Source: Fidelibacterota bacterium (lineage in GTDB: Bacteria; Fidelibacterota; UBA2242; B5-G15). From it: a stretch of DNA of 64,000 bases. Below are positions 23,906 through 64,000 of this stretch, one piece after another (the stretch's first letter is position 1; every line of letters begins with the position of its first letter). The stretch is from assembly GCA_017656425.1 (NCBI GenBank), contig JACDNV010000002.1, forward strand, positions 183,512 through 247,511, in the 5' to 3' direction. The position numbers and the translations under genes were made by a program. Under the pieces are notes generated by a model. That model saw only the letters and a program-made list of their open reading frames with translations. It was not told the DNA's origin and did no database searches.

Positions 23906-24322
23906 ATGAAAGTTATAGTACAGCGAACAAGTGGCAATACTTTTATTGCAAAGGGGGAATCCAATCACTGGGTCGTAATGGATACAGATGAGAAATTTGG
24001 TGGTAATTCTGCCGGGAGTAAACCAGTAGAGCTATTACTAATGGCACTGGGTGGCTGCACAGGTATGGATATCGAAAGTCTTGTAAATAAAATGCGTACA
24101 CCGGTGGATGATTTCAGAATAGAAATCGAGGGAGAAAGAGTCGATGAACATCCCAAAGTTTTTACGAGAATTGAAATAGTTTATAAGTTTTGGGGTAAGA
24201 ATCTAAATGAGGATAACATTAAGAAAGCTGTTGAGCTTTCCCATACGAGATATTGTACAGTAAGTGCGATTCTAAAAAAGACTTGTGATATAAGTTATAG
24301 AATAGAGATAAATTCTGACTGA
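23906..24322 (+). CDS. OsmC/Ohr family peroxiredoxin-like protein
   Basis: 138 aa, OsmC fold pattern with two conserved Cys (LGGCTGMD … RYCTVS). Confidence 0.75.
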   Translation: MKVIVQRTSGNTFIAKGESNHWVVMDTDEKFGGNSAGSKPVELLLMALGGCTGMDIESLVNKMRTPVDDFRIEIEGERVDEHPKVFTRIEIVYKFWGKNLNEDNIKKAVELSHTRYCTVSAILKKTCDISYRIEINSD

Positions 24323-37150: not shown

Positions 37151-37831
37151 ATGATAGTGGTAATCTTAAATATTTTATTGGTTATGATAATTAGTTATAT
37201 ATGTGGTTCTTTCCCGACCAGCATTGTTGTAAGTAAACTGGCAAAGGGCATAGACATAAGAAATTATGGTTCAGGAAATGCTGGTGGAACAAATGTTTTT
37301 AGAGTGTTGGGATGGCAGTACGGAATTTTAGTATCTATAGTTGATATAGGGAAAGGAGTCATTGCAACTTTACTTGTCTCGCAAATTCGAATAGAACAAC
37401 TTTCTTTTGAATGTGATATGCTTTTCAAAATAGTTGCAGGATTATCGGCAGTTATTGGTCACAGCTTCACAGTCTTTGCTGGGTTTCGGGGTGGAAAAGG
37501 CGTAGCTACAGGTGCGGGGATGCTTATATCATTAACACCTGTGGTTTTTATCGCCTGTTTGATAATCTTTGCACTGGTTTTATTTTCTACAGGGATAGTA
37601 TCTGTAGCTTCAATCACAACTGCTATTTGCTTCCCTATAGCCTTAGTCCTATATTCAGTAATAAGGGGAGTGAGTATAGATCAGACACTCTTAATATTTA
37701 GTCTTGTAATTCCACTCTTTATCATCTTTACACACAGGCATAATATAATTCGAATATTCAGAGGACAAGAAAATAAATTTGAAAAAATAGCTATTATAAA
37801 AAATCTATTTAAGAAGCGAAAAATTACTTGA
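37151..37831 (+). CDS. plsY: Glycerol-3-phosphate acyltransferase (acyl-phosphate dependent)
   Basis: GSFPTS…GSGNAGGTN motifs, 5-6 TM, 226 aa. Confidence 0.85.
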   Translation: MIVVILNILLVMIISYICGSFPTSIVVSKLAKGIDIRNYGSGNAGGTNVFRVLGWQYGILVSIVDIGKGVIATLLVSQIRIEQLSFECDMLFKIVAGLSAVIGHSFTVFAGFRGGKGVATGAGMLISLTPVVFIACLIIFALVLFSTGIVSVASITTAICFPIALVLYSVIRGVSIDQTLLIFSLVIPLFIIFTHRHNIIRIFRGQENKFEKIAIIKNLFKKRKIT

Positions 37832-38351
37832 GATATTTTTTTACCTCTTTCATAAAGTCATCTTTGCTTCTTGCGCCTATCCATTGGTGTCTAACGATTC
37901 CATCCCTATCTATTAGAAAAGTAGTAGGAACTGCTCTGACGCCGCCATAACTGGTTGCAATAGTCATTATTTCTATATTTGAGCCTGTAACAAGGATATA
38001 ATTTATTTTATACGATTCAGCGAATTTTTTTACCTGCTCTGGAGTACCTGAAGACGGTATAGTTATTCCTATAATTATAAGTCCGTCTTTTTTATGTTTC
38101 TCCTGAATGTTAATCAAATCAGGTATTTCCATCCTGCAGGGACCACACCATGAAGCCCAGAAGTTCAACATAACAACCTTCCCTTTAAAATCAGATAGCT
38201 TTACTTTATTTCCATTTAAATCATTAAGTTCAAAATCGGGTGCCTTTTTACCTATAATTTCCTGGGAATATGTGATATTTATTAAAAACACCATTGATAG
38301 TATAGCGAGTGCTATTATTCTAATACCGGTTGTTGATTTCAATATTAACAT
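37824..38351 (-). CDS. TlpA/ResA-like thiol-disulfide oxidoreductase (periplasmic thioredoxin)
   Basis: Signal anchor + WASWCGPC motif. Confidence 0.8.
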   Translation of the reverse strand: MLILKSTTGIRIIALAILSMVFLINITYSQEIIGKKAPDFELNDLNGNKVKLSDFKGKVVMLNFWASWCGPCRMEIPDLINIQEKHKKDGLIIIGITIPSSGTPEQVKKFAESYKINYILVTGSNIEIMTIATSYGGVRAVPTTFLIDRDGIVRHQWIGARSKDDFMKEVKKYLK

Positions 38352-38352
38352 T

Positions 38353-40137
38353 TTAACCTCCCTGGTTTTTAATTAATGCCTTTTTCATTCTTTGTACGAA
38401 TTTCTTGGGATCTTCAAATCCAAAGAGCCTTAGTTCTTTTATCTCTTTTCCTTCTGGTGAGATAAATATTATAGTTGGGACACCTTTTATGTCATACTTC
38501 TTTTTCAACTCCTTTTTAATCGGGTCATCCCCAATGGTTAAGTCTACTTTTATCAATGTAAAGTTTTTTGCCAAATTAATAACCCTTTCGTCAGTGAAGG
38601 TTATACTTTCAAGTTCCTTACAGGGGATACACCAATCTGCATAAAAATCTATGATAACGGGTTTCTTCCACTGTATTGATTGTTCCAAAATGGTTTCGTT
38701 ATAATCAAACCATTCCAGTTTTTCTTTTTGCTCTACGGGTTTTATCATCCAACCGGAGATAAATATGAGAATGATAGCTATAATATTTTTTATGTAGTTG
38801 AAGGCTTTAGATTCAGGAGCAGTTTTATTAAAGAGAATTAAATAAATTCCAATTCCAAGTGCGTATAATGAGTAGATAAGTTTTGATAATGTGCTTCTTA
38901 GTAAGGGGGAAAGAAAGTATATTGCCATTGCTACTAATATGAATCCAAAAAACATTCTAATTCCAACCATCCATCTCCCAGACTTAGGTAAACTTGAAAT
39001 TTTGCTGGAAAAGAAAGCGAGTATCATAAATGGTATTCCAAGACCAAGAGAAAGTGTAAAAAACATTGCAAACCCGATAAAGGGATTCCCAGTAGTAGCT
39101 ACATAAGTCAACAGTCCGATTACAAAAGGACCGATACAGGGAGCAGCTACAAGTCCCATGGTCATTCCAATGAGTAAAGCTCCAAAATAACCCTCTCCAA
39201 TATTTGCTCCCAGCCTCAAAATAAAAGCAGGTTGCTGTATTTCATAAAGACCAAACATACTTAGGGCAAGAGTAATCATAACAAGTGCAATAAAAACAAG
39301 TACTACTGGATTTGCAAGAAAACTGCCCAGCATTCCTCCTGTAAGAGCAGCGACAGTACCGAGTGTTGAATTTACGAGAGTCATTCCCATGATATATAAA
39401 AATGCCATAAGAAGCTTCTTCCCTTTTTTGCTTGCTGCCTGACCGCCGAAATAGCCTATGGTTATGGGAATAAGAGGATAGACGCAGGGTGTCAGATTAA
39501 GTCCAAGACCTCCAATGAAAATGAGAATCAAGCTTATAAGTAATCCTTTTTCTTCAATGCTGTCCATGAATGAGGAATTTTTGTTGTTTTTCTGTACACT
39601 TTTTGAAATGATTTGATTATCAAAATTTATGAAATATTCTTTATTTATATTTTCAAATTGGGATTCGTTATTCAAAATTGGGAGTGTTATACCAAACTCT
39701 ACCTCTTCGGGTGGTTTGCATACCTGGTCATTACAACCCTGGTATTTCAAAGAGCCCTTTATCTTTAAGTTATTTTTTATGCTTCTATCTATTAATAGTA
39801 TTGCATATACTGTATCTAACCCCTCATAGACTTTTAAAGGATTATTATAAAAGGGTGGTTCGATTTTCTTTGGGTGTGGATAAATGATTTTTTCTACTTT
39901 GAAATTGACCTCGTTAAAGTGGATTGAAGTTGGTATTAATAGTTCATCATCTGGACTCACTGAGTTGATATGCCAGCCTTCTTTTATGTCAAGTACTAAA
40001 GCGAGCATTAACTTTTTTCCTGGGATGACACCATTAGCATTGGGATAGAGTTTAATTTTAACCAATTGCGCTGAGGCAGATGTATAGAGAAAAATTAAAA
40101 TTGCCATAAGCAGGATTGTTCTTATTGCCTTTTCCAT
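38353..40137 (-). CDS. dsbD: Thiol:disulfide interchange protein DsbD
   Basis: N-terminal periplasmic domain, CcdA-type TM core with two Cys (TPCVYPL…APCIGP), C-terminal thioredoxin WCIPC. Confidence 0.8.
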   Translation of the reverse strand: MEKAIRTILLMAILIFLYTSASAQLVKIKLYPNANGVIPGKKLMLALVLDIKEGWHINSVSPDDELLIPTSIHFNEVNFKVEKIIYPHPKKIEPPFYNNPLKVYEGLDTVYAILLIDRSIKNNLKIKGSLKYQGCNDQVCKPPEEVEFGITLPILNNESQFENINKEYFINFDNQIISKSVQKNNKNSSFMDSIEEKGLLISLILIFIGGLGLNLTPCVYPLIPITIGYFGGQAASKKGKKLLMAFLYIMGMTLVNSTLGTVAALTGGMLGSFLANPVVLVFIALVMITLALSMFGLYEIQQPAFILRLGANIGEGYFGALLIGMTMGLVAAPCIGPFVIGLLTYVATTGNPFIGFAMFFTLSLGLGIPFMILAFFSSKISSLPKSGRWMVGIRMFFGFILVAMAIYFLSPLLRSTLSKLIYSLYALGIGIYLILFNKTAPESKAFNYIKNIIAIILIFISGWMIKPVEQKEKLEWFDYNETILEQSIQWKKPVIIDFYADWCIPCKELESITFTDERVINLAKNFTLIKVDLTIGDDPIKKELKKKYDIKGVPTIIFISPEGKEIKELRLFGFEDPKKFVQRMKKALIKNQGG

Positions 40138-50647: not shown

Positions 50648-53134
50648 ATGTTAATAAAAAGAATCCTTTTTATAATAGTTTTTTTGCAAAGTATTGTATT
50701 TGCTCAGAGTAATGCAAGCATTTATGGCTTTGTGCGTGAGAAAGCTACAGGCGAACCGTTATCTTATGTTAATGTTTTTTTGAAGGGGACTGACTTTGGA
50801 GCTCCTACCAATAGTGAAGGCTACTATTCGATTTCATTTGTTCCTGCTGGTGAATATGAAATTGTTGTCTCTATGATTGGTTATGAAACTATCACAAAAA
50901 AGGCGAAAGTTGAAGCAGGGAAGGATTATAGATATGATTTTTTTATGAATATATCGCCTGTAGCTGGGGAGAAAATTACAGTAGTTGCTGAGAGAGAAAA
51001 GTTTAAGGAATCTCTAACAGTAAGTGGTTTTACATTCTCCATGAAGAGTATAAATAGTATCCCAGGGTTTATGGAATCGGATGTATTAAGAGCTATACAG
51101 CATCTCCCAGGAGTGCAATCAATTACTGATTATACGGCGGCGTTGTATGTTAGAGGTGGTACTCCAGATCAAAATCTTGTTATGATAGATGGGATCCCTA
51201 TCTATAATCCATTTCACCTGGGCGCGATTTTTTCAACTTTTAATACCGATGCAATAAAGGAAGCCGAATTTATTGCAGGTGGATTTCCTGTGGAGTATGG
51301 TGATAGGATTGGTTCAGTTATTAATATTGTTCAAAGGGATGGAAATGCTAACCAGATAAAAGGAAATGCCAATGTTTCACTAATTTCAAGTAAGATACTT
51401 TTGGAAGGACCTCTAAAAATTTCTAAAAATATAACAGGTACGTGGATGATAGGAGGCAGGAGAACATATTTTGATAAAATGTTTGATGGGGTAAATTTCA
51501 TAGTTGAAAAAATATCAGGGGAAGAAAATAGTTTAAAATTTCCATATTATTTTTATGATTTTAATAACAAGATAAATTTAAATATAGGAAATAACTACAG
51601 AATCACTTTGATATCGTTTTACGGAGATGATGTGTTTTACTATAAGCATAGAGATGAATATAGCTACGAATACCCGGAATTTAATGAGTATTCGTATCAT
51701 AAAGAGAGTGGTGAATTTACAGTAAAATGGGGTAATCGGGCAAATGGAATCATATGGCGGTGGTTACTGAGCCCAAGATTAGTTGTTAAGAATTATTTGT
51801 ACAACACAAGGTTTAGATTTTTCGTTGATGTATGGGGTAGGGAAAGTGAATATTATATAGCTGAACGAGATACAAATAGATCAAAAGTAAATTATGGTTT
51901 TAATACTTATGATTACATATCTGAAAACTCCTATAATATATCATTTTCCTATAAGTTATCTCCAAAGCATTTGGTATTATCTGGATGTGATATTAAATGG
52001 TATGACTATAATCTTGGAATGGAGATCTATGGTAAGGAATGGGAAGATACTTTATTATATTCAAATATTTATATGAAACCGTTAGATATGAAATATCATC
52101 CATTTGAGTATCATTTTTACATACAGGACAAATGGGAGATAAATCCTTTATTATTCTGCCAATTTGGGTTGAGGAGTTCGAAAAACACAAACCAAACAAA
52201 ATTTTATAATGATCCACGTTTTAATATCAAATACATGATAACAGAAAACTTATCAACAAAGTTTTCATGGGGGATTTATCACCAGTATTTAACAACGGCT
52301 AATCCGCCTGATGAAACCCTTAGACTTCTTGATGTGTGGTTACCTGTGGCTCGTGGTCATTTACCTATTAAAGCAATTCATAATATACTTGGGTTTGAAT
52401 ATCTACTGCCTAATAATTCATATTTCAGAATTGAAGGCTACTATAAAGATTATAAGAATCTACTTGAATTAAAAGCAGAAAAAATAACTGTAGAAGAAGA
52501 GGATGAAGGTATTGTTTTTAAACATGTTAATGAGTTTAGAAATGCAAAGGCTTATTCTTATGGTCTGGAAATATTGTACAAGAAAACGTCTGGCAAAATC
52601 CAAGGCTGGATTGGTTACAGCTATGCAGTTGTAAAGAAAAAATTGGAAGATGGGAATAAATGGTTTTTCCCTAAGTATGATAGGAGACACTCATTAAATA
52701 TTGTGGGATTTATTAAACTGAAAAATAATTTAAAATTAGGTACAACTCTGACATATTGCAGTGGTAATCCATATACTCCGATAGTTGGTAAGATTAAGGA
52801 ATTTTATATATTAATGGGAGGTGGTTATTACAGATATTTTGATTTATATGTCAATAATTTGTGGTTATTGGGAGAAAAAAATAGCGCAAGGTATCCTTAT
52901 TATTTTAGACTGGATATCGGGATAATGAAAAGGAAGGAAAAAAGTTGGGGTTCTTATGAATGGTATTTCCATATTATAAATGTTACAATGAGGTTAAATG
53001 TGATGACTTATATATATGAAGAACCTTATTATGAAGATGAAGTTATATATGAGGGGAAAAAACCTACTGTTGTAAAGTATCCAATACCAATGTTTCCGAT
53101 TATGCCTACATTTGGAGTGAAATTTGAATTCTAA
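50648..53134 (+). CDS. TonB-dependent outer-membrane receptor with N-terminal CarboxypepD_reg-like domain
   Basis: Signal peptide, carboxypeptidase-regulatory-like beta-sandwich, TonB-box-like EKITVVAE, plug, long beta-barrel ending in …FGVKFEF. Confidence 0.7.
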   Translation: MLIKRILFIIVFLQSIVFAQSNASIYGFVREKATGEPLSYVNVFLKGTDFGAPTNSEGYYSISFVPAGEYEIVVSMIGYETITKKAKVEAGKDYRYDFFMNISPVAGEKITVVAEREKFKESLTVSGFTFSMKSINSIPGFMESDVLRAIQHLPGVQSITDYTAALYVRGGTPDQNLVMIDGIPIYNPFHLGAIFSTFNTDAIKEAEFIAGGFPVEYGDRIGSVINIVQRDGNANQIKGNANVSLISSKILLEGPLKISKNITGTWMIGGRRTYFDKMFDGVNFIVEKISGEENSLKFPYYFYDFNNKINLNIGNNYRITLISFYGDDVFYYKHRDEYSYEYPEFNEYSYHKESGEFTVKWGNRANGIIWRWLLSPRLVVKNYLYNTRFRFFVDVWGRESEYYIAERDTNRSKVNYGFNTYDYISENSYNISFSYKLSPKHLVLSGCDIKWYDYNLGMEIYGKEWEDTLLYSNIYMKPLDMKYHPFEYHFYIQDKWEINPLLFCQFGLRSSKNTNQTKFYNDPRFNIKYMITENLSTKFSWGIYHQYLTTANPPDETLRLLDVWLPVARGHLPIKAIHNILGFEYLLPNNSYFRIEGYYKDYKNLLELKAEKITVEEEDEGIVFKHVNEFRNAKAYSYGLEILYKKTSGKIQGWIGYSYAVVKKKLEDGNKWFFPKYDRRHSLNIVGFIKLKNNLKLGTTLTYCSGNPYTPIVGKIKEFYILMGGGYYRYFDLYVNNLWLLGEKNSARYPYYFRLDIGIMKRKEKSWGSYEWYFHIINVTMRLNVMTYIYEEPYYEDEVIYEGKKPTVVKYPIPMFPIMPTFGVKFEF

Positions 53135-54080
53135 GAATATATTAGTTAGTAAAATATTATGTTTGTTTATTTCAATTACATTACTTATGATAAGTGATTG
53201 TTTTAATTATAAACCTGAAGAGGTTACAGCAGATTATGAACCTGAGCTCTTAATCGCAGGCTTTATACGTGTTGATACAATGCCGAGTTTTGTTGTTGTA
53301 AATCGCACATTAAGATTAGATGAGACTGAATCCGTTGTTGTAGATACGGATACAGTATACTGGAATGGATATCGCTATACTGTTTATAAGAAGAAAAGCA
53401 CATGGGATGTTGATAGCGCAGAAGTTATTGTATATGACGGAGATAAAAATTATAGATTTAATCCTTTATGTATAGATGAATTGAGGTATGATAAAGAGGA
53501 TTCTCTTATCTATGAGAAATTAGGAGATTTAAAAGGTTTTTATAGTGTTGATGTAGTCTATGTTGATACTACTTTTAACTTTAAACCTGAAGGAAATAAG
53601 ACATATTACTTAGAAGTAAAGACTAAAGACGGTAAGATAGCTACAGGACAGACGACAACTCCTTCTGAGATATATGTAGATGAAAGCCTTATCCCTGATA
53701 CTCTTTACTATGGTGATGTCGTAAAACTAAAATTCAGAGTAAAAAATGCTAGTTATGTAGAGATTGATGCAGGTTTTTATTATTACGCTACTTACAGACC
53801 TTTTAATTCAGATACGACTATTAATATTTTATTAAAAGATCCCGGATATGATATATATAGTTATTCTTCAACTGATACAATTTATTTTGATATATCGATT
53901 TTTGCTTATGACGAGAATTATTATAAATATTTTATTGAAAGGCCAATAAATGACCTTTTTGTCAGTTTGTTTTTAGGCGAAGGACAACCGGGGTATTCAG
54001 CGGGAGTAGAGGGCAGTTACGGCTTTTTTGCAAGTTACTCTTGTAAATTTGTACTAAGAACCCTTATTAAATCTTATTAA
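53124..54080 (+). CDS. DUF4249-like lipoprotein partner of the TonB-dependent receptor
   Basis: Signal peptide + lipobox (ISDC); 11-nt overlap with the receptor gene; family assignment from remembered genomic association, not from a strong motif. Confidence 0.4.
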   Translation: MNSKNILVSKILCLFISITLLMISDCFNYKPEEVTADYEPELLIAGFIRVDTMPSFVVVNRTLRLDETESVVVDTDTVYWNGYRYTVYKKKSTWDVDSAEVIVYDGDKNYRFNPLCIDELRYDKEDSLIYEKLGDLKGFYSVDVVYVDTTFNFKPEGNKTYYLEVKTKDGKIATGQTTTPSEIYVDESLIPDTLYYGDVVKLKFRVKNASYVEIDAGFYYYATYRPFNSDTTINILLKDPGYDIYSYSSTDTIYFDISIFAYDENYYKYFIERPINDLFVSLFLGEGQPGYSAGVEGSYGFFASYSCKFVLRTLIKSY

Positions 54081-54096
54081 ATGTAAAGAATACCAG

Positions 54097-55476
54097 TTAT
54101 GAACAGATCTCTAAGTTTTTTCTGCATTTATGCATGATTATTGTTGCTATAGTCAGGCTAAGAAGACCAGCTGTTGCATTGCCTAATACAATGCCCCACC
54201 ATACCCCTGGAGAACCCAATTTGATTACTATACTGAGTATATACGCCAATGGTACATTCAAAAGGATCGTTCTTGTTAATGTTATAATTAAAGCAAGAAA
54301 ACCTCTTCTTATTCCCTGAAACATTGCTGAGGTTAGCATCCCAAGTGGTATAAAAGGGTAAAAGGCACACATTACCTTTAGAAAATGAATCAGGTCTTCT
54401 GAAATTCTCCTTGTTTCCGGAGCATAGGTAAAAATAAAGGATACTGGTTTTGCAAAGGTAAAAAGTAAAATTCCAGCTATCACTTCTATAATGAGGCCAG
54501 TTCGTATAGCGTAAAAATATGCAGTTTTTAATTTTTTATACTCTTTTGCTCCATAGGCAGCACCTGTAACAGCTGTTACTCCCATTGCCATTCCGATCAT
54601 TGGTAGTGTGCCTATCATTACGATACGCCAGCCAGAGGTGAATACGGCAACTCCGTCTGTCCCCCCTGCCTTAATAGCGATTAGATTGATAAAGAACATT
54701 GAAAAAGCATTCCCCATTTGAATCATTGACGATGGTATACCAACAGAGAATATTTCCCTTAAAATTTCCTTTGTAAATTTAAATTCATTGAAATGTATTG
54801 ACACAAAAGTTTTTTTCTGAAAGAAAAGCCAATATATGAATAGTGCGGAAACCAGAGCCATCGATAAAATTGATGCTAATGCTGCCCCAACTACACCAAG
54901 TTTTAAAACATAAATGAACATCGGGTCAAGGATTATATTCAATATTGAGCCGGAAACCATTGCCCACATTGCCTTTTTAGTGTCACCTTCCCCTCTTAAA
55001 ATTGCATTTGAAATATTTGAGAAGAAGAGAAATATAGTACCAGCTAGTATGACTCTACCATACTGTGTTGTAAGAAAAGATATGTTTTTAGCACCAAGAT
55101 TTCTTATAATCGTCTCAAGAAAAGGCAGTAGTGGAATGCTTATTATTAGACTTGCAATAAAGGAAAGAACAATTGATTGTATTGCTATTTTGTCTGCAGA
55201 GGCTTTGTCTTTTGCACCTATTTTTCTTGAAATGGCGGAGCTTGCCCCCACGCCTATGCCACCAGCTAGCGACATTAAAATGAAATAAATAGGAAAGAAG
55301 AACCCTATTGCGGCGAGGGAATCAGGTCCCAATCCGGATACCCAGATTGCATCGGCAACATTATATGCAGTCTGTGCTATCATACCTATTGTCATAGGTA
55401 TGGATAGTTTTATTATCGCTTTTTTGGGATTCCCAAGGAGTGTTTTTACTCCAATGGTGATTTTTTCACCTTCCAT
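54097..55476 (-). CDS. MATE-family multidrug/Na+ efflux transporter
   Basis: 12-TM, 459 aa, MATE-like internal duplication. Confidence 0.8.
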   Translation of the reverse strand: MEGEKITIGVKTLLGNPKKAIIKLSIPMTIGMIAQTAYNVADAIWVSGLGPDSLAAIGFFFPIYFILMSLAGGIGVGASSAISRKIGAKDKASADKIAIQSIVLSFIASLIISIPLLPFLETIIRNLGAKNISFLTTQYGRVILAGTIFLFFSNISNAILRGEGDTKKAMWAMVSGSILNIILDPMFIYVLKLGVVGAALASILSMALVSALFIYWLFFQKKTFVSIHFNEFKFTKEILREIFSVGIPSSMIQMGNAFSMFFINLIAIKAGGTDGVAVFTSGWRIVMIGTLPMIGMAMGVTAVTGAAYGAKEYKKLKTAYFYAIRTGLIIEVIAGILLFTFAKPVSFIFTYAPETRRISEDLIHFLKVMCAFYPFIPLGMLTSAMFQGIRRGFLALIITLTRTILLNVPLAYILSIVIKLGSPGVWWGIVLGNATAGLLSLTIATIIMHKCRKNLEICS

Positions 55477-55533
55477 CTTTCTATTATTGAATAGGGTAAT
55501 AATTAAAAAATCGGGTAATTTATGGAAAAATTT

Positions 55534-55977
55534 TTATTTTTTATATGGTAATCCAGATTTAACCCAAGCCTCAAAACCGCCTTCTATATTATATATTCTA
55601 TTAAAACCTAATTCACTCATTATCTCGCATGAAAGTGCACTTCTTCCCCCTGATTTGCAGTATAAGATATAAATTTTATTTTTATCAAGTCCAGATACAT
55701 CCTTTTTAAAATTGTCACTATAGTAATTAATATTTATAGCACTATCAATGTATCCTTCAGAGTATTCTCTCTTTGTTCTTACATCAAGAACGATTATTGA
55801 GTGTGAAAGTTTTGGATTTGTGAGCATTTGATAGGCACTGTCTGGTGAAATATTAAAGTATTTTTGCTCTGATTCAACCTCCTTCTTTTTTTCGATATTT
55901 TTTTCGCAATTAATTAATATTAGAGATGTAGTAACAATTAAAGAAATGAAAGTCAAAATAAATTTTGAATTTCTCAT
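55534..55977 (-). CDS. Rhodanese-domain sulfurtransferase lipoprotein
   Basis: Signal peptide + lipobox (LINC); active-site loop YCKSGGRS. Confidence 0.8.
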   Translation of the reverse strand: MRNSKFILTFISLIVTTSLILINCEKNIEKKKEVESEQKYFNISPDSAYQMLTNPKLSHSIIVLDVRTKREYSEGYIDSAININYYSDNFKKDVSGLDKNKIYILYCKSGGRSALSCEIMSELGFNRIYNIEGGFEAWVKSGLPYKK

Positions 55978-56025
55978 TTTCTCCCCCTATTTCTTGATGG
56001 ATTTTCCGTTTAAATTTTTAATAGT

Positions 56026-56496
56026 CTACTTTCGAGATGCTTTTGCTTCTGATAGACGGATGAAATGTTTTCTTTCTTCATTGATTATATCATTGATTAA
56101 TTTTTTATCAACTTCGGAGATAAGCTCAATTATCTCTTTGTAATAAAGAATTGATTTTAATTCAACCTCTATTGCATAATTCAGTGCCCTATCAAGAGTA
56201 TCAACTTTTTCTATTTCTGATTCGACTGATTCAGGGAAGATAACTTCTTTTAGGTATTCGTCTATGTAATTGAAGAACTCACCGGGATAAGATTCAGATA
56301 TTTTTATATTTCCAAGTCTTGCTTCCATATTCTCAAAAACTTTTTTATGTTCTAGTTCCTGATTTGCAAGATCAACAAATAAACTTTTGATATTGGTATC
56401 GTCAAATTTTTCCGAGACTTTGCGGTAAAAATATTCACCATTTTCTTCGATTTTGATTGCAAATTCGAATACTTCTTTTGCTGTTAAAAGTCCCAT
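56026..56496 (-). CDS. Ferritin-like diiron protein (rubrerythrin family, no rubredoxin domain)
   Basis: Four-helix-bundle length with E…ExxH x2 (ELEH, EERKH). Confidence 0.55.
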   Translation of the reverse strand: MGLLTAKEVFEFAIKIEENGEYFYRKVSEKFDDTNIKSLFVDLANQELEHKKVFENMEARLGNIKISESYPGEFFNYIDEYLKEVIFPESVESEIEKVDTLDRALNYAIEVELKSILYYKEIIELISEVDKKLINDIINEERKHFIRLSEAKASRK

Positions 56497-56517
56497 TATC
56501 TCCCCCTATTTTAAATC

Positions 56518-57690
56518 TTACAATGTATTTAGCTTTTCAATAATTTTGTTTGCAAGTTCCTCAATTTTTGTAAAATCTTCTTTTTTAGGATACCCTTTTA
56601 TTAAAAATGGATCAATTATTTCTGCTTTAAGATTACTCATCATAGAGGTAGCTACTTCAAGTGCTTTGCCGCCCCATCCGTAGGAACCGATAATGGATAT
56701 ATACTTTGTCTTTGGTCTAAGAGCGTTGATCAGGTATAGTGCATAAGCTGCAGGTGGATGTAAACCTGTTAGTACAGTCGGTGTTGCAAGTATAATAGCT
56801 GCGGCATCTACAAGTTTTATTGCAAGTTGACCGATATCAGCTACTGTAAGATTTATGGGAGTTACTGTTACCCCTTTATTTAATAGATAATCTACAAGAT
56901 ATTCTACAATTGCTTTTGTACTACCATGCATAGATACATATGGTATCAGTATCTCTTTTTTTACATTGTCAGAGATCCAGTCTTTATATGCATTTATTAT
57001 AAAATCTGGATTATTATAAATAGGGCCGTGACTTGGTGCGATAATATCAAATTTGAATTTTTCGATTTTTCTAAGATTGTTTTTAATAATGCTTCTAAAA
57101 GGCATCATGATCTCTGCATAGTATCTTTTTGCTGGTTCATGTATAGTTTCTTCATCAGTATAAAGATCTGAGGTGGCAAGGTGGGAGCCGAAGAAATCGC
57201 AGGTAAACAGGACCTTATCTTCCTTTAGATAGGTAACCATTGTTTCTGGCCAATGGACCCATGGAGTTAATATGAATTGCAAAGTTTTATTTCCAAGGTT
57301 TAGTTCATCCTTGTCGTCTATTACAATGAATCTGTTATCCGGAATTAAAAGAAGGTCTTTTAAAAATACAACGTTTTTGGCATTCGTAACTACTTTAGCA
57401 TCAGGGAATTTTTCAAGTATATGGGGAATTAGTCCAGAATGATCCTGTTCTGCGTGGTTCGAAATTATATAATCAATTTTGTCGGCACCTGTTCGTGAAA
57501 GCTGTGAGAAAAAATTTTTCTCCATAGATGGGTCGGCTGTATCTATAAGGGCTATCTTGTCACTTCCTTTAATAAGGTAAGCATTGTACGAGGTGCCATC
57601 GGGTAGTGGGATAAGCTCATCAAATAGTCTTCTATCCCAGTGCCTTACCCCAATATAGAATATATCATCTTTTATCTTCTGGATTGTCAT
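56518..57690 (-). CDS. Flavodiiron protein (A-type flavoprotein; O2/NO reductase)
   Basis: MBL-like diiron domain motif HAEQDHSG + C-terminal flavodoxin domain (PYVSMHGSTK). Confidence 0.85.
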   Translation of the reverse strand: MTIQKIKDDIFYIGVRHWDRRLFDELIPLPDGTSYNAYLIKGSDKIALIDTADPSMEKNFFSQLSRTGADKIDYIISNHAEQDHSGLIPHILEKFPDAKVVTNAKNVVFLKDLLLIPDNRFIVIDDKDELNLGNKTLQFILTPWVHWPETMVTYLKEDKVLFTCDFFGSHLATSDLYTDEETIHEPAKRYYAEIMMPFRSIIKNNLRKIEKFKFDIIAPSHGPIYNNPDFIINAYKDWISDNVKKEILIPYVSMHGSTKAIVEYLVDYLLNKGVTVTPINLTVADIGQLAIKLVDAAAIILATPTVLTGLHPPAAYALYLINALRPKTKYISIIGSYGWGGKALEVATSMMSNLKAEIIDPFLIKGYPKKEDFTKIEELANKIIEKLNTL

Positions 57691-57723
57691 GTATGTTTCC
57701 TCCTTGGAATTAGTCCTGAACGA

Positions 57724-57888
57724 TTAATCTTCTACAGGTTCAAATTCCTCTTTTCCTGCGCCACATACGGGGCATACCCAATCATCAGGTAATTCTTCGA
57801 AAGGCGTCCCGGGATCGATATCACCATCCGAATCGCCTACTTCTGGATCATATACGTAACCGCATACTTTACATTCATACTTTTTCAT
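57724..57888 (-). CDS. Rubredoxin (54 aa; not in the ORF track)
   Basis: My translation: [54 protein letters not shown] — CxxCG…CPxCG with aromatic core. Confidence 0.85.
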
Positions 57889-57900
57889 TATTTTACCCTT

Positions 57901-59091
57901 CTAATCGTCCAGTAGTCTTTTTTCACCTTTTAAGTTTTTTATCTTAGTTACATCCTGAGTCACCTCAATTACTCCAAGATACCGTCCGTTTTTATCCCTG
58001 ACAGGGAAATATCTAATATAAATCAATCTATCATTCATATTAATCCAAAAGTCAGCAGATTCTCTTCTATTATTTTTAAAGTCCTCAATAATCTTATTCA
58101 CAATGTGGATACTCTTCTGAGGATGACATTGCTGTACTTTTCGTCCTATTACTGCTTTAGTCCTTGCAAAAATTCTTTCTTTTGATTGGTTGAAATACCT
58201 TACTTCATCATTTGCGTCAACAAATGTTATATCAATAGGTAGGGAGTTCAATATTGCTTCTATCTCTTCTTTTTTAAATTTACCAGTGTCAAGTTGAATC
58301 CACCCCTCATCCCCGCTTGATTTGGCAACAACTGCTTCTTCAATATCTATTTTAAATTCACCAGGTTCCGGTGTGAAACAGCAGTAGCCTATCTTATCAA
58401 AATCTTTTCTTATAGTGACCCATTCATTATCTGTTATTACTCGAAGAGCAGTTGGAAAGAGGATGTTGTTTTCTTTATAAAAGTGGCTTGATAGTAGTTC
58501 GTGTAGTTGTTTCGTGAGATTTTTTAATTCTTCAGTAGCTATGTACTCTTTTTTATCTGCAATAGAATAAATTTGTTTTTTTAAAGCTCTAATATTATCG
58601 TGTTCCATCCACATTATAGCTGGAGGTTGTGTTATACCATGCTTCTCTAAAAATGGGAAGAGAGCATTTTCCTCTCGAATGTAGTGCTTTTCCGATTCCT
58701 TTAAATGTTCGATTATATGGTCAAATTTTTCCGGGGCAATGTTTCCTGAGTTAATCATTTCTTTTAATTTTTCAGAGAAATCAATAAGACGATCGTGTTC
58801 ATTATACAGAATTTGTATGGGGTGGCTATTATCGAGATTTTTAGGCTTTGATTTTTCTAATGACTCTTTCATTAACGCTATATGGGCATCGCATAATTTA
58901 TGAACCTCATCAACTGGCATGCCGTCTCTAATAAGTTCCTCCTCAATCTTTGCCAATTGATCGGGATTTATATCGCCAATGTATTTTGAGAATTCCTTTT
59001 TTGCTTCTTCTAGTGGATATCCCTGATGTAGTTTTTTTATTAACTCTTTAATCTTTTCTTTTTTACCCTCGATGCCGAAGATATCACTCAT
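57901..59091 (-). CDS. Hemerythrin-like metal-binding + PAS domain protein (DUF438-like architecture)
   Basis: Two H…E…H / HxxxE…LFP blocks (ESEKHYIREENALFP; LSSHFYKENNILFP), C-terminal PAS-like region. Confidence 0.45.
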   Translation of the reverse strand: MSDIFGIEGKKEKIKELIKKLHQGYPLEEAKKEFSKYIGDINPDQLAKIEEELIRDGMPVDEVHKLCDAHIALMKESLEKSKPKNLDNSHPIQILYNEHDRLIDFSEKLKEMINSGNIAPEKFDHIIEHLKESEKHYIREENALFPFLEKHGITQPPAIMWMEHDNIRALKKQIYSIADKKEYIATEELKNLTKQLHELLSSHFYKENNILFPTALRVITDNEWVTIRKDFDKIGYCCFTPEPGEFKIDIEEAVVAKSSGDEGWIQLDTGKFKKEEIEAILNSLPIDITFVDANDEVRYFNQSKERIFARTKAVIGRKVQQCHPQKSIHIVNKIIEDFKNNRRESADFWINMNDRLIYIRYFPVRDKNGRYLGVIEVTQDVTKIKNLKGEKRLLDD

Positions 59092-59130
59092 AGATTTTTC
59101 TCCTTACGTTGCTTGATGTTTTTATTTTAA

Positions 59131-59355
59131 CTAAAAGACCTGTTCGACCCTTTTTACTTCTGGCACCTCTTCCTTTAGTCTGTTTTCGATGCCCATTCTT
59201 AAAGTGTAGGTGCTCATGGGACAGCCTCCACAGGCACCGGTTAAACGGAGTTTTACTATACCGTCTTCAGTTACTTCAACAAGTTCCACATCCCCTCCAT
59301 CTGCCTGGAGATATGGCCTTAGGGACTCAATTACTTTTTCTATTTTTTCTTTCAT
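59131..59355 (-). CDS. NifU-like (Nfu) Fe-S cluster scaffold domain protein
   Basis: 74 aa, …[11 protein letters not shown]…[15 protein letters not shown]… CxxC motif. Confidence 0.8.
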
Positions 59356-59376
59356 GATTTTTGCTCCTGTTTAATT

Positions 59377-59883
59377 TTAAAATTTTTTAAAGATTTCTTT
59401 TTTTGCTTTGCATATTGGACATTCATCAGGTGGTATTCCCACATGTGTATAACCGCAGACAGGGCAGATATAAATATCTTCTATTTCGATATCCTGCTCT
59501 TTTTCAACAACTGTTTTTGAATCTCGGTACATTTTCTCGTGAATTTTCTCAGCCTCTAGTGCATAGTGAAAAGATTGGACAGCTAGATTTTCATTTTGAA
59601 GCTGAGCAGAATTTTTAAAAACCGGGTACATTTCGGTTACTTCATAATGTTCACCCTCTATGCAGGATTGTATATTAGCTGGTAAATCATCAGTGAAGAT
59701 TCCTAGGATTCTTGCATGATTTGTTGCATGAACCTGCTCTGCATAGGCAATAGCTTTAAACATTCTTGCGAGATTTTTATATCCCTTTTTCTCGGCTATT
59801 TCGCTATAAATAATATATTTCATATGAGCCATGGACTCCCCGGCAAAGGCGTCCTTTAGAAATTGTTCTGTCATTTTTTTCAT
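59377..59883 (-). CDS. rbr: Rubrerythrin
   Basis: Ferritin-like diiron domain (AFAGES…EQVH…E..H) + C-terminal rubredoxin-like CPVCGYTH…CPICK; start set at MKKMTEQ Met adjacent to fur stop rather than the longer track ORF. Confidence 0.85.
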   Translation of the reverse strand: MKKMTEQFLKDAFAGESMAHMKYIIYSEIAEKKGYKNLARMFKAIAYAEQVHATNHARILGIFTDDLPANIQSCIEGEHYEVTEMYPVFKNSAQLQNENLAVQSFHYALEAEKIHEKMYRDSKTVVEKEQDIEIEDIYICPVCGYTHVGIPPDECPICKAKKEIFKKF

Positions 59884-59884
59884 T

Positions 59885-60316
59885 TTATTCACTTTCTTCA
59901 CTTTTCTGGCAGTCTTTGCATATGCCTTTGAAATATCCATGTATTTCCTGTATTAGATGACCTCTGACTTTTGCATATTTTCCCTCAGCAAGCGGGCATC
60001 TTACGTTAATGTCAAAAATTCTTCCACACTTTTTACATAAAAAATGGTGATGATTTTTGCGTTTTATTTCATATCGAGCTTCGCTACCTGTGATTAGAAT
60101 TTCATCTGCTATCCCCGCTTCGACAAATCCGGCAAGGGTGTTGTATACAGTAGTTCTACTTGCTGTCGGGATATCTTTTCTTATTTCTTTAAAAATGTTA
60201 TCGACAGTCGGATGATCCTCATTTTCAGATAGTATCTGGTATATTCTCACTCGCGGGTAAGTTGGCTTAATTCCCTTTTCACTTAATATTTTCTTAACTT
60301 CATCAATTGTAATCAT
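59885..60316 (-). CDS. Fur-family metalloregulator (PerR-like by context)
   Basis: Winged helix + HHHFLCKKCGRIFDI…C..C metal sites; heads a peroxide-stress operon. Confidence 0.8.
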   Translation of the reverse strand: MITIDEVKKILSEKGIKPTYPRVRIYQILSENEDHPTVDNIFKEIRKDIPTASRTTVYNTLAGFVEAGIADEILITGSEARYEIKRKNHHHFLCKKCGRIFDINVRCPLAEGKYAKVRGHLIQEIHGYFKGICKDCQKSEESE

Positions 60317-60328
60317 TACAAAAGTATA

Positions 60329-60348
60329 TTAATTACAAATATAATTAA
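60329..60348. promoter_or_regulatory. Inverted repeat TTAATTA-N6-TAATTAA immediately upstream of the fur-like gene
   Basis: Direct reading; 13 bp upstream of the ATG; candidate autoregulatory Fur/PerR operator. Confidence 0.25.
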
Positions 60349-60360
60349 TGTCAAGAAATT

Positions 60361-61026
60361 TTATTTAAATATGTCTCCTGTCTCATTATACCAGAATATA
60401 AAATCAATATAATAAATTGGTATACCCAGGTTTTTTGAAAAATTATAAATCCTTTTTTCAATATATAAATAATGACGTCGGCTCATGCTATAATCAATAC
60501 TATCTATTATACCGTATTTTTTTAAATTTTTCAATATATGTCTGTCAAGTATTGCAAGTTTTCTGCCTATCCAAATATTTCTTAGAAAATGACTTGCCTC
60601 TTTATAACCAAACCCTTTAATGTTTTTTACAAGTATCTCTCTTATTCTCTTTACATCATTATCTGTTTTTATTATTTCTAAAATCTTATCTATTTTCCCA
60701 TTATCTAAGTCTAATCTCAGTTGAGATAGGTAGCTGAGTTTGTTATTTGGAAATCTTACACCATACAGACAATTTTTTAAAGTGCTTTTGTTCAAGTTTA
60801 TAAATGCGTTGGTTTCTTTTATCTTTTTTACCGTTTCCCAGCAGACCCTTGCTTTCGATTGAGGGGTCAAAATGCAAAATATTAGTTCAAATAAAATTTC
60901 ATATTTATCAAATCTATCCCAGATATTTTTAAATTCCAGCAGACGGTTATCTATTTGTAGTTTTAGCTTTTTGTATAATTTTTGAAGAGTATCGAATTCA
61001 CCCACATTATACTCAAAGTTTAACAT
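60361..61026 (-). CDS. ogg: Archaeal-type 8-oxoguanine DNA glycosylase/AP lyase (Ogg2-like, HhH-GPD)
   Basis: HhH-GPD motif GFGYKEASHFLRN…LDRHI; ~220 aa. Confidence 0.65.
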   Translation of the reverse strand: MLNFEYNVGEFDTLQKLYKKLKLQIDNRLLEFKNIWDRFDKYEILFELIFCILTPQSKARVCWETVKKIKETNAFINLNKSTLKNCLYGVRFPNNKLSYLSQLRLDLDNGKIDKILEIIKTDNDVKRIREILVKNIKGFGYKEASHFLRNIWIGRKLAILDRHILKNLKKYGIIDSIDYSMSRRHYLYIEKRIYNFSKNLGIPIYYIDFIFWYNETGDIFK

Positions 61027-61369
61027 TAATATTATGAATAAATCACTGATTTATAAACTTAAAACTGAGCAATCTAAAAATTTATTACTCATTAATCCGA
61101 GGATATGATTTAGTTTAAATATTCTCTCAGTATATAATCCCGTGAAGTAAATAGGGGGCTTAAAAATCAAAATGGATATTTCATGTCCTCAAGCTTGACA
61201 TATGTTTAAATTAGAAATGTTGTAAATGTTGTGTTACTGTAAACCTATACTGGTTTGGATCAGTTTTGAAAATCTGATGCAATATAATATTATGTACTTT
61301 TTATTTTAATTTTTATATTAGCCTATAAAATGAAATCTATGAGTGCTAATATGGAGGAGATGAATAAAA

Positions 61370-61693
61370 ATGAATAGTCGTATAACAATTGGTATAATAT
61401 TAATAGCGATTGGAATTGTTTTTCTAATTGGAAATTTTGATATTTTTGATTTTGAGAATATATGGCCAGTTGTGATGACTATCCCGGGTTTTGTTTTATT
61501 ATATCTTACATTTATGAAAAAAGAAAAAGGTTTTGCTGTACCGGGAACAATACTAACAGTTCTGGGAATATATTTTCTTTACGAATCCTACAATAACTGG
61601 AATACTATTGATGAGCTGTGGCCTATCTTTATAATAACACCTGGTCTTGGATTTATAGTTATGCATTTTGTGGAAAAGATGAAGAAGGATTAA
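61370..61693 (+). CDS. Small 4-TM membrane protein with internal tandem repeat (LiaF/LiaI-like TM domain)
   Basis: Two ~45-aa repeats G.IL…GI.FL…WP…PG; 107 aa. Confidence 0.4.
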   Translation: MNSRITIGIILIAIGIVFLIGNFDIFDFENIWPVVMTIPGFVLLYLTFMKKEKGFAVPGTILTVLGIYFLYESYNNWNTIDELWPIFIITPGLGFIVMHFVEKMKKD

Positions 61694-63033
61694 ACTTCTA
61701 TGCCAAGCTCATCGATTTTTCTATATAGCGATGAAAGTCCGATTCCTAAAATTTTTGATGCTTTCACTTTATCATTTCCTGTTCTTCTCATGATAGCAAG
61801 TATATGTTGTCTTTCAAATTGTCTTACAGCGGATTTAAGCTCATCAGGATAGCCTTCATGTACCTGACTTGCTGTATGTGGTGGTAAATCTTTCAGTGTA
61901 ATATAGTCACCTTCACATAAAAGAACTGCGCGTTCTATCATATTTTCCAATTCTCTTACCTCACCTTTGTAATTATAGTTCATCAGAACTTTCATTGTTT
62001 CGTTATCAACTCCACGTACTTTTCTTTTTAATTCATGGTTGTATTTTCTGATGAAGTGTTCAATTAGAAGAGGTATGTCCTCTCTTCTTTCGTTCAGTGA
62101 AGGAAGATGTATTTCTATAATATTTAATCTATAGTAGAGGTCTTCCCTGAAATTTCCTTCTTCAATTTCTTTCTTGAGATCCTTGTTGGTTGCAGATAAA
62201 ACTCTTACATCTACTTTTAATGTTGTATTACTTCCTAGAGGTTTTATTTCCTTTGATTCAATAGCTCTTAGAAGCTTTACCTGTATATGAATGGGTATTT
62301 CTCCAACCTCATCAAGAAAAAGAGTTCCGCCATTAGCAGCACGAAAAACCCCGTCTTTATCCATAGTAGCACCGGTGAAGCTACCTTTTTTGAATCCAAA
62401 CAGCTCGCTTTCAAAGAGATTTTCTGGTATAGCGCCACAATTAATCGGAATAAAAGGTGCATTCGCTCTCGGACTTGCTTGGTGAATAGCTCTGGCAACC
62501 AGTTCTTTCCCGGTTCCACTTTTTCCTGTTATCAATATGTTTGAGTTTGAATTTGCTACTTTTTTTATAAGTTGAAATACATTTTGAATTGCGGGACTTT
62601 TTCCAATTATTATGTTTTCATTGAATTTAGAATGAATTTCCTTTCTTAGATATTGTACTTCAAGATTAAGTTGCTGATATTGCTTTATCCTTTTTACTCT
62701 CATAATGACTTCATCGAAGTCCACCGGTTTAATGAGATAATCGACAGCACCGCGTCTTAGAGCTTCTATTGCAGTTTCTACAGTTGCGTAGGCAGTGATT
62801 ATTATTGTCAGAGTTTTGGGGCTTATTCTATTGGTTGTTTCTAAAACTTCCATTCCATTTTTCTTTGGCATTTTAATATCCACGATCAATATATCGAAAT
62901 TTTCTTTTTCGATAAGTTTTATTGCCTCTTCTCCATCTGCTGCTGTATTACATTCAAATCCTTCTTCAGAGAGTACAGTATACAATGAGTTCCTTAGCTC
63001 TCTTTCATCATCAGCTATAAGTATTCTTGTCAT
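61690..63033 (-). CDS. Sigma-54-dependent response regulator (NtrC family; REC-AAA+-HTH)
   Basis: REC domain (ILIADDE…D…K), AAA+ with GAFTGA-type loop (KKGSFTGA), C-terminal Fis-type HTH. Confidence 0.9.
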
Positions 63034-64000
63034 TTAATTACCTCACTTTTATCTATTGGGATATTTATAGTAAACTTTGTGCCTTCACCAGGAGTGCTTT
63101 CTACCTTTATATTTCCACCTATACTAGAAATTATACCGTGACTCACAGAGAGACCCAATCCAGTGCCGTAGCCGACATCCTTTGTTGTAAAGAACGGTTC
63201 AAATATTCTATCAATTATATCAGGATTTATACCTTCACCATCATCAATAATTTCTATTGAGACATAGCTGTCATTTGCATAAGTGTTTACATGGATATTT
63301 CCACTTTCTTTGTCTTTACACGCATCAATAGAATTTAGAAGCATATTCATAACAACCTGGTGTATCTGATCAGGGACAAGATAAATCAGAGGAACATCCG
63401 GGTTTAGATTTATATGAAAATTTATTTTTTCACATCTAACGTCATATTTTAAAAGACCGACGGCAGAGCTTATTATTTCATTAATCTGAACTTTTGTTTT
63501 TTCTCCAGTTGTTGGTCTTGAAAAATCAACGAGCTCTTTTACTATTCTGTTTATTCTATTTATGTTTTCTCTAATCTTCTTTAGGCTTTCCTGTATGAAG
63601 TTATCAGTGGTTTTTCTTTGTATAAGCTGAACAAGTGACTGAATTGATGATAAAGGATTGCTAACCTCATGTGCAACCCCAGCGGCAAGATGGCCAAGAG
63701 TTGCAAGTTTTTCTGACTGCATTAGTTTGCCTTCAACAGCAGATATTTCCAGTAAGTCCCTTATTATTATAATTCTTTCTGAGATTTTTTTCATACTCTT
63801 ATTAAGAAATATATCAGTTAGTTCCATTCTTCTCATTTTTCCGTTTTTCAATTGCATATCTGTTTCACATATTTTTATGCCAGATGGATTTATGGTACAA
63901 ATTTCTGCGATTACACTACTTGCTTTCCCAGGAAAAAGTATTGAAATATCTTTATTGATAATTTCACTCTTTTTCCATCCGAATATTTCTTCAGCCTTTT
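63030..64000 (-). CDS. Sensor histidine kinase (PAS-HisKA-HATPase_c), N-terminus beyond window edge
   Basis: H-box (AAGVAHEVSNPL), N/G1/G2 boxes (…DDGEGI…GTGLGL…); reading frame stays open past the annotated Met to position 64000 with PAS-like sequence. Confidence 0.75.
   Translation of the reverse strand, partial: KAEEIFGWKKSEIINKDISILFPGKASSVIAEICTINPSGIKICETDMQLKNGKMRRMELTDIFLNKSMKKISERIIIIRDLLEISAVEGKLMQSEKLATLGHLAAGVAHEVSNPLSSIQSLVQLIQRKTTDNFIQESLKKIRENINRINRIVKELVDFSRPTTGEKTKVQINEIISSAVGLLKYDVRCEKINFHINLNPDVPLIYLVPDQIHQVVMNMLLNSIDACKDKESGNIHVNTYANDSYVSIEIIDDGEGINPDIIDRIFEPFFTTKDVGYGTGLGLSVSHGIISSIGGNIKVESTPGEGTKFTINIPIDKSEVIK

Follow-up and report, generated by a model that had tools for sequence, protein, structure and literature searches.

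A probable PerR-type rubrerythrin/rubredoxin/flavodiiron operon carrying an Nfu gene and a DUF438/hemerythrin/PAS_10 gene in a Fidelibacterota bacterium

Analysis of a 64-kilobase (kb) stretch of DNA from a Fidelibacterota bacterium (assembly GCA_017656425.1, contig JACDNV010000002.1; this whole stretch is referred to as the window) points to a minus-strand locus that is likely a PerR-type, autoregulated operon of rubrerythrin (Rbr), rubredoxin (Rd) and flavodiiron protein (FDP) genes in an anaerobic host. The same operon also carries genes for an Nfu-type Fe-S carrier and for a protein combining DUF438, hemerythrin and PAS_10 domains (hereafter, the DUF438 protein). Taken as a whole, the operon is largely ordinary and varies a known kind in its composition; what interest it has comes from the DUF438 family, not from the locus itself. 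PerR/Rbr/Rd/FDP defence is textbook knowledge for anaerobes, to which this operon alone adds little.

In the direction of transcription, the locus comprises fur (59885-60316), encoding a PerR-like Fur-family regulator of 143 amino acids (aa); rbr (59377-59883), a 168-aa rubrerythrin with a di-iron domain and a C-terminal rubredoxin-like domain, whose true start (MKKMTEQ) is nested in a longer open reading frame (ORF; 59377-59940); nfu (59131-59355), a 74-aa Nfu-type Fe-S carrier; the gene for the 396-aa DUF438 protein with its three Pfam domains (57901-59091); a 54-aa rubredoxin gene (57724-57888; PF00301); the gene for a 390-aa class A FDP (56518-57690); and a gene for a 156-aa ferritin-like protein of the TM1526 type, which has no rubredoxin domain (56026-56496). 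This series is preceded by ogg (60361-61026), encoding an Ogg2-type 8-oxoguanine glycosylase/lyase, and followed by genes for a 147-aa single-domain rhodanese with a CKSGGR loop (55534-55977; PF00581) and for a MATE efflux transporter (54097-55476; PF01554 and TIGR00797), the tenth co-directional gene. An earlier reading of this DNA made from the sequence alone (the original prediction) had placed nine closely spaced minus-strand genes here, and the ORF listing and the sequence bear this out with gaps of 1-48 nucleotides (nt): 44 nt for ogg-fur, 1 for fur-rbr, 21 for rbr-nfu, 39 for nfu-DUF438, 12 for DUF438-rubredoxin, 33 for rubredoxin-FDP, 21 for FDP-ferritin-like and 48 for ferritin-like-rhodanese, the three values given originally (1, 12 and 33 nt) being reproduced exactly. 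Every domain assignment proposed at that time also passes its Pfam gathering score. One correction concerns ogg, which had been described as following the series: on the coding strand it precedes fur and opens the series. Another is the addition of the MATE gene at the far end, where the rhodanese-MATE gap measures 57 nt. Strong Shine-Dalgarno sequences stand before nfu, the DUF438 gene, the FDP gene, the ferritin-like gene and the rhodanese gene, and a pattern scan of the minus strand from 53900 to 61800, the rhodanese-MATE gap included, detected no terminator-like site. Co-direction, short gaps and the lack of an internal terminator are the features of a single operon, which, as judged by pattern scans, they weakly suggest.

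The coherence of the operon is more than a matter of chance because its core order recurs in relatives. The nearest of these are contigs labelled Candidatus Neomarinimicrobiota, with identities of 69-91% per protein; a metagenome scan returned no relative of the window above 69% identity. Two such contigs (L001 and L003) keep both the order and the spacing from fur to FDP at 69-91% protein identity (91% for Nfu in both), and a third (L083), with a DUF438 protein 90% identical to that of the window, keeps the order through rubredoxin, where the contig ends. Outside this segment the gene content differs. Downstream of FDP the relatives carry a Memo-like gene and lack the ferritin-like gene as well as the two that follow it in the window; upstream of fur, L001 has a metallophosphatase gene and L083 a LysM gene in divergent orientation; and ogg, rhodanese and MATE occur in none of the three contigs. 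The conserved core therefore consists of six genes, fur-rbr-nfu-DUF438/hemerythrin/PAS_10-rubredoxin-FDP. Of the series proposed originally, conservation of the neighbourhood in these relatives covers this core (in L083, up to rubredoxin) and does not extend to ogg, the ferritin-like gene or the rhodanese gene, nor to MATE. A Fur/PerR-led oxidative-stress transcription unit, as first suggested, is plausible, and the inclusion of the hemerythrin/PAS and Nfu genes in this unit holds as well, both genes keeping their place in all three related contigs.

The regulator belongs to the Fur-family fold (PF01475, 87 bits against a cutoff of 23), and its best match in the Protein Data Bank (PDB) is Bacillus subtilis PerR (2fe3, E 1e-18). 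Of the five regulatory-metal ligands of PerR (His37, Asp85, His91, His93 and Asp104 in B. subtilis numbering), four are identical in this alignment, with Glu standing in for Asp85, and the cysteines of the structural Cys4 zinc site are all kept. The 44-nt ogg-fur gap contains a promoter-like site, TTGACA-17 nt-TAATAT (60326..60354, minus strand), which matches the consensus at 10 of 12 positions, and whose TTGACA hexamer and placing of the -10 hexamer are kept in L001 and L003; its position predicts a fur mRNA that would be leaderless or nearly so. A perfect 7-1-7 palindrome, TTGTAATGATTACAA (60307..60321), is centred on the fur ATG and covers the start codon. It has a single exact occurrence in the window, and an identical copy stands at the matching position in L001, L003 and L083, where the surrounding upstream sequence has diverged and the upstream genes differ. 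We regard this palindrome as a candidate Fur-family (PerR-type) autoregulatory operator. When relaxed to three mismatches, it is not enriched in the window (20 matches found vs. 14.9 expected), and hence no further regulon members can be claimed. A locus from another phylum (L052, Aerophobetes) has a fur-rbr...DUF438 cluster with TTATAATAATTATAA, which matches the B. subtilis Per-box consensus, approximately 41 nt upstream of its fur homologue (6206-6658). A second inverted repeat of the window, ATTAATTA-N6-TAATTAAT (60328-60349), sits in the spacer of the fur promoter-like site, flanked by its -35 and -10 hexamers; as it is specific to the window and has no counterpart in L001 or L003, it was rejected as an operator candidate.

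The rubrerythrin is recognized by PF02915 (76 bits) and PF21349 (39 bits), displays two ExxH and two CxxC motifs, scores under the NCBIfam equivalog cutoffs, and is a predicted peroxidase. The full-length rubredoxin passes its equivalog model (NF045768, 108.3 bits against a cutoff of 90) and, by analogy, is predicted to donate electrons to both FDP and Rbr. Residues 6-386 of the FDP align to residues 6-395 of Moorella thermoacetica FprA (1ycf, E 3e-63) with all di-iron ligands (H-x-E-x-D-H...H...D...H) conserved, as in class A proteins; its Pfam match is to ODP/Lactamase_B, and the flavodoxin half is shown by the full-length FprA alignment. It is not a flavorubredoxin of the NorV type, given 244 bits against a cutoff of 635 and no fused rubredoxin domain, and is predicted to be an O2 and/or NO reductase. 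The Nfu protein matches PF01106 over the full model (108 bits) and has a CGGC motif, in line with the cluster-binding CxxC of Nfu-type Fe-S carriers. Finally, the ferritin-like protein shows a partial PF02915 match, no rubredoxin domain, and a match to the Thermotoga protein TM1526 (PDB 1vjx, E 4e-14); an exact-sequence look-up returned no identical record.

The least familiar component of the core, the DUF438 protein, is built of DUF438 (PF04282, 73.9 bits), Hemerythrin (PF01814, 67.7 bits, residues 90-215) and PAS_10 (PF13596, 114.9 bits, residues 278-382), in this order, and one search retrieved over 5,400 homologues that share this Pfam set. Across 25 homologues, H90, H136, E140, H164, H203 and E207 are invariant, and the same holds for C67 and H70 (C-x-x-H), where DUF438 ends, and for C322, H323 and H329 in PAS_10. 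Pfam and NCBIfam give no match to a DNA-binding, kinase or GGDEF output domain in this protein. It matches the structure of the uncharacterized Pyrococcus furiosus protein PF0695 (PDB 3cax, E 2e-60), which differs in having no DUF438, the alignment starting at PF0695 residue 5 and query residue 86. A literature search under DUF438, PF0695 or COG2461 revealed no functional study. The window protein is 51-56% identical to homologues from Bathyarchaeia, Thermoplasmata, Heimdallarchaeota and Hydrothermarchaeales (among loci L014, L026, L029, L035-L038, L048, L061, L067, L072, L076 and L077), an unusually high cross-domain identity that is suggestive of strong constraint, of lateral transfer or of both. 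The immediate upstream neighbour of the DUF438 gene is the FDP gene in several Bathyarchaeia.

Two known proteins bear on the possible role of this family. The first, PG_0686 of Porphyromonas gingivalis, has hemerythrin (96-215) and PAS10 (297-402) domains with an added DUF1858 (PMC10101095), the two shared domains standing at nearly the same positions as in the window protein, with a Cys near residue 68 in both; the PG_0686 motifs LDVAEGKLTLEQINL and RDAD are colinear with LDTGKFKKEEIEAIL and RDKN of the window. The homology thus refers to published domain coordinates and two short motifs rather than to a direct alignment, and, unlike the window protein, PG_0686 has the extra domain at its C-terminus and is not encoded in an Rbr/FDP operon. 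PG_0686 is strongly peroxide-induced, and its mutant is H2O2-sensitive, rubrerythrin being one of the two genes whose expression falls most in it. PG_0686 is an iron-containing protein that undergoes O2-dependent spectral changes, and a non-canonical, GGDEF-less diguanylate cyclase activity has been claimed and is unconfirmed (PMC10101095). The second is the RIC/YtfE type (PMC9268430), which likewise has a four-helix hemerythrin-like di-iron domain with H...HxxxE...H...HxxxE ligands and a genomic or regulatory tie to stress-induced Fe-S damage. Its ligands (H84, H129, E133, H160, H204 and E208 in YtfE; PMC9268430) have their pattern reproduced in the window protein, where H164, H203 and E207 align directly to Escherichia coli YtfE H160, H204 and E208, in a weak overall match. 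The feature that defines RIC, ScdA_N, gives no match on residues 1-87 even at E values up to 5, and the RIC models reach 25-30 bits vs. cutoffs of 205-254 (29.5 vs. 254 for the YtfE model). Unlike RIC/YtfE, the window protein lacks the DfCCgG motif along with ScdA_N, having an N-terminal DUF438 with the invariant C-x-x-H and an added PAS_10. An AlphaFold model of moderate quality (predicted local distance difference test score of 70, and below 50 in the PAS core) led Foldseek first to 3cax and 2qkp and after them to PAS domains that are generic or bind haem, with YtfE not returned; the model and this search did not settle the choice between a sensor and a RIC protein.

A broader view of the family is provided by its genomic neighbourhoods. 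The genome set consists of 81 species-level loci with a DUF438 homologue more than 50% identical to the window protein (WOR-3, Aminicenantes, Chloroflexota, KSB1, Aerophobetes, Bathyarchaeia, Thermoplasmata and others), and a separate metagenome set adds 76 loci, for 157 DUF438 loci in both. Unbiased clustering of the neighbours within 4 kb in the genome set yielded FDP (31 loci), rubrerythrin (20), a flavin-reductase-rubredoxin, Hrb (16), ferritin-like proteins (15), cysteine desulfurase (13), TusA (12), a SufC-like ATPase and a P-type ATPase (11 each), IscU and desulfoferrodoxin (10 each) and peroxiredoxin (8). Within 5 kb, genes detoxifying O2 or reactive oxygen species are present in 44 of the 81 loci, Fe-S assembly genes in 25 and both in 20, nearly all of them on the same strand as the DUF438 gene. 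Restricting the count to loci flanked by 3 kb or more on each side gives 26/42 for detoxifying and 18/42 for Fe-S assembly genes. The density of detoxifying genes amounts to 4.5 per 10 kb at up to 1 kb from DUF438 vs. 0.4 at 6-8 kb (approximately 11-fold), and the metagenome set is in agreement (detoxifying genes in 31/76 and Fe-S assembly genes in 14/76 loci). A ferritin-like homologue, absent from L001 and L003, is found within 5 kb in 13 of the 81 genome loci, including representatives of other phyla (directly after FDP in L066, as well as L013 and L027). The ferritin-like protein is thus a recurrent accessory member, and in the window genome its TM1526-type gene extends the conserved six-gene unit. 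In other phyla, a flavin-reductase-rubredoxin fusion of approximately 229 aa, resembling the high-molecular-weight rubredoxin Hrb of Moorella, replaces the small rubredoxin beside DUF438 and FDP (L010, L013, L019, L021, L023, L025, L027, L033, L043, L045, L046, L049, L059, L066 and L071); by analogy, such a fusion would supply an NADH-to-FDP link that the window operon does not have.

The presence of hemerythrin/PAS and Fe-S genes within a defence unit had originally been put forward as new, which cannot be sustained, as the pattern is widespread in anaerobic bacteria and archaea and PG_0686 had been tied to peroxide tolerance before (PMC10101095). The juxtaposition of a DUF438 gene with defence and Fe-S genes is real and widespread and is, it seems, undescribed as a pattern. 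It is possible, though in our judgement somewhat doubtful, that the DUF438 protein is an unrecognized core partner of rubredoxin/Hrb-FDP O2 reduction and Fe-S assembly in anaerobic Bacteria and Archaea, serving as an O2/peroxide-gated switch or an iron donor (via its di-iron site and possibly a PAS-bound haem or metal) that couples O2 removal to Fe-S rebuilding. If so, the window operon would represent a compact, PerR-wired example of a pan-anaerobe module undescribed as such. For a family with this many matches, with more than 50% identity between bacteria and archaea, and with detoxifying neighbours in about half and Fe-S neighbours in about a quarter of the loci, the neighbourhood pattern offers a testable hypothesis about a widespread uncharacterized protein and a context for the single genetic study, that of PG_0686. 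Should the protein prove to be the O2 sensor or Fe-S repair factor used by strict anaerobes, it would fill a gap concerning the coupling of O2 removal to repair in organisms that have no OxyR/SoxR-type systems.

In the borders of the operon, our reading departs from the original prediction, which saw in the locus one integrated sense-detoxify-repair island of nine genes (ten with MATE), with ogg, for DNA repair, and the rhodanese gene, for sulfur supply to Fe-S repair, as co-regulated functional members. We consider this unlikely. The genes do all run in one direction, none of the gaps exceeds 57 nt and the scan detected no terminator-like site, the themes of 8-oxoguanine repair and sulfur transfer fit (TusA and cysteine desulfurase recur near DUF438 elsewhere), and one metagenome contig (L103) has a same-strand ogg near rbr and DUF438. 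The identity of Ogg itself as an Ogg2-type enzyme is clear (NF002305, 197.1 bits vs. 183; PF22175, 176 bits). Nevertheless, ogg is separated from fur by the promoter-like site, with the conserved palindrome lying over the fur start codon; it is missing from that position in L001, L003 and L083, other genes being found there even in the last of these, with its closely similar DUF438 protein; and an ogg homologue occurs within 5 kb in just 2 of the 157 DUF438 loci, as compared to 0 of 157 for homologues of the rhodanese and MATE proteins. Instead of an island member, ogg is probably an upstream neighbour with a separate transcript. As for the rhodanese, its N-terminus is hydrophobic and ends in ...LILINC, with an Asn at position -1 that is non-canonical for a lipobox. 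Thus, of the original designation as a lipoprotein rhodanese, the rhodanese domain stands and a membrane anchor or export is likely, while a lipoprotein is only possible. A protein that, judging by its leader, is probably exported or membrane-anchored is unlikely to act in cytoplasmic Fe-S repair, and this, together with its absence from the DUF438 loci, speaks against the rhodanese as a repair partner. In addition, a TTGATA-16-TATAAT sequence with an extended TG (11/12; 56084-56111, minus strand), which no other promoter-like match in the region equals in strength, falls within the 3'-terminal part of the ferritin-like gene, approximately 100 nt upstream of the rhodanese gene. Transcription of the rhodanese and MATE genes may start internally at this site; these two may also be joined to the operon through read-through. 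Overall, ogg and the rhodanese gene are incidental neighbours.

It is also improbable, in our estimate, that the operon serves mainly against nitrosative stress, with the FDP as an NO reductase and the hemerythrin-like protein, together with Nfu, repairing nitrosylated Fe-S clusters in the manner of YtfE/RIC. Such a function would agree with the naming of the best FDP matches as NO reductases (FprA 1ycf and the NorV models), with the YtfE ligand pattern in the hemerythrin domain and its three directly aligned residues, and with Fe-S assembly genes near DUF438 in 25/81 loci, but it sits poorly with a regulator that is PerR-like and not of the NsrR or NorR type, with a rubrerythrin that is a peroxidase, and with the superoxide reductase and peroxiredoxin genes found in the same neighbourhood elsewhere; the DUF438 protein, for its part, departs from RIC in its lack of ScdA_N, its low RIC scores and its extra PAS_10.

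Several observations nonetheless weigh against the preferred reading of the locus as a PerR-type, autoregulated O2/peroxide-defence operon. The best NCBIfam model of the regulator, clostridial PerR (NF052545), is matched with 94 bits vs. a cutoff of 180, and NF047406 with 76.5 bits vs. 200; since these scores fall under the curated PerR equivalog cutoffs, the regulator is termed PerR-like and not a proven PerR, its Fur-family membership being the sole certainty. The palindrome TTGTAATGATTACAA is one symmetric position away from the B. subtilis Per box and, equally, from the Zur box, so that the DNA alone does not specify PerR. Promoter-like matches are no commoner in this AT-rich stretch than in its shuffled versions (28 vs. 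36.8), and the 3' end of the operon is predicted, as are its promoter and operator. No rubredoxin reductase is present among the window ORFs scanned, and this enzyme must hence be encoded elsewhere. A preference of the FDP for O2 over NO cannot be read from its sequence, and the role of the DUF438 protein is divided almost evenly, with a slight inclination towards a PG_0686-like signalling/regulatory function over a YtfE/RIC-like helper in Fe-S rebuilding. A true Fur or Zur regulating an iron/metal-homeostasis operon, which would respond to metal availability rather than to oxidants, with Rbr and the ferritin-like protein handling iron and Nfu serving Fe-S supply, is very improbable: the certainty limited to family membership, the scores under the PerR equivalog cutoffs and a palindrome core, GTAATnATTAC, that resembles the B. 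subtilis Zur box would allow for it, but the top PDB and NCBIfam matches are to PerR and the weakest to Zur (E 1.6e-4), the PerR-type Asp104 equivalent is conserved, Rd, FDP and Rbr together make up the classic O2/peroxide set, and the locus includes no genes for metal uptake.

Under the PerR-type reading, the operon would be blocked in anoxia by a metal-loaded PerR-like dimer bound to TTGTAATGATTACAA, since this palindrome extends over the predicted transcription start of the regulator's own leaderless gene and over the start codon. Oxidation of the metal-site histidines of the regulator by H2O2 or O2 would then release it from the DNA. Electron flow from rubredoxin to FDP and rubrerythrin is established biochemistry for homologues; here, an NAD(P)H:rubredoxin oxidoreductase encoded elsewhere would reduce rubredoxin, which would in turn supply FDP, for the reduction of O2 to water or of NO to N2O, and rubrerythrin, for that of H2O2 to water. 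Nfu would re-deliver Fe-S clusters to damaged enzymes, and the DUF438 protein would register O2, H2O2 or NO via its di-iron site and the conserved Cys-His site in its PAS domain. Elsewhere in the window, an nrdD-nrdG pair (18168-20962, plus strand) encodes NrdD (702 aa; PF13597, 690 bits) followed by the radical-SAM activase NrdG, which fits an anaerobic or O2-sensitive host.

Comparable operons are known from other anaerobes. PerR-linked rubrerythrin operons are established in clostridia, exemplified by the PerR-controlled oxidative-stress operon rbr-perR-rbo(sor)-CD630_08280 of Clostridioides difficile (bioRxiv 10.1101/2024.09.17.613384). The window operon and these clostridial operons have in common a Fur-family PerR repressor gene inside the controlled operon and beside rubrerythrin, as well as rubredoxin-type carriers that feed di-iron peroxide/O2-reducing enzymes, the clostridial hosts being strict anaerobes. 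Unlike them, the window operon has the regulator first, an FDP in place of superoxide reductase, and the additional Nfu and DUF438/hemerythrin/PAS_10 genes, in a Neomarinimicrobiota-like host rather than a Firmicute. The PerR regulon of Clostridium acetobutylicum was reportedly described by Hillmann et al. in 2008/2009, and the Moorella thermoacetica rbr-fprA-hrb cluster is said to have been described by Das et al. in 2001. The latter cluster and rd-roo of Desulfovibrio gigas resemble the window operon in the placement of rubredoxin directly upstream of a class A FDP and in the rubrerythrin gene of the cluster, and rubredoxin:oxygen oxidoreductase structures (1e5d and 1ycf) are among the matches of the window FDP, with the di-iron ligands conserved; in contrast to the window operon, neither cluster is known to contain an in-operon Fur/PerR, Nfu or DUF438 gene.

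The remainder of the window is ordinary chromosome; Rfam and tRNA scans gave no match anywhere in the window. Further redox-related genes include dsbD (594 aa) beside a gene for an AhpC/TSA-Redoxin family protein with a leader (37824-40137, minus strand) and a gene for an OsmC-like peroxiredoxin (23906-24322, plus strand); the TTGTAATGATTACAA palindrome is found at neither of these loci. On the plus strand (50648-54080), a gene for a TonB-dependent-receptor-like protein (CarboxypepD_reg and Plug, 828 aa) overlaps by 11 nt with a 318-aa ORF that has a TTG start, a lipoprotein-like N-terminus and no Pfam match, and that may encode an uncharacterized partner of the receptor. Divergent from ogg across a 343-nt intergenic region, a gene for a small LiaF/LiaI-like membrane protein is followed on the opposite strand by genes for an NtrC-type sigma-54 response regulator and a histidine kinase (61370-63857), and rpoN is located at 7130-8545.

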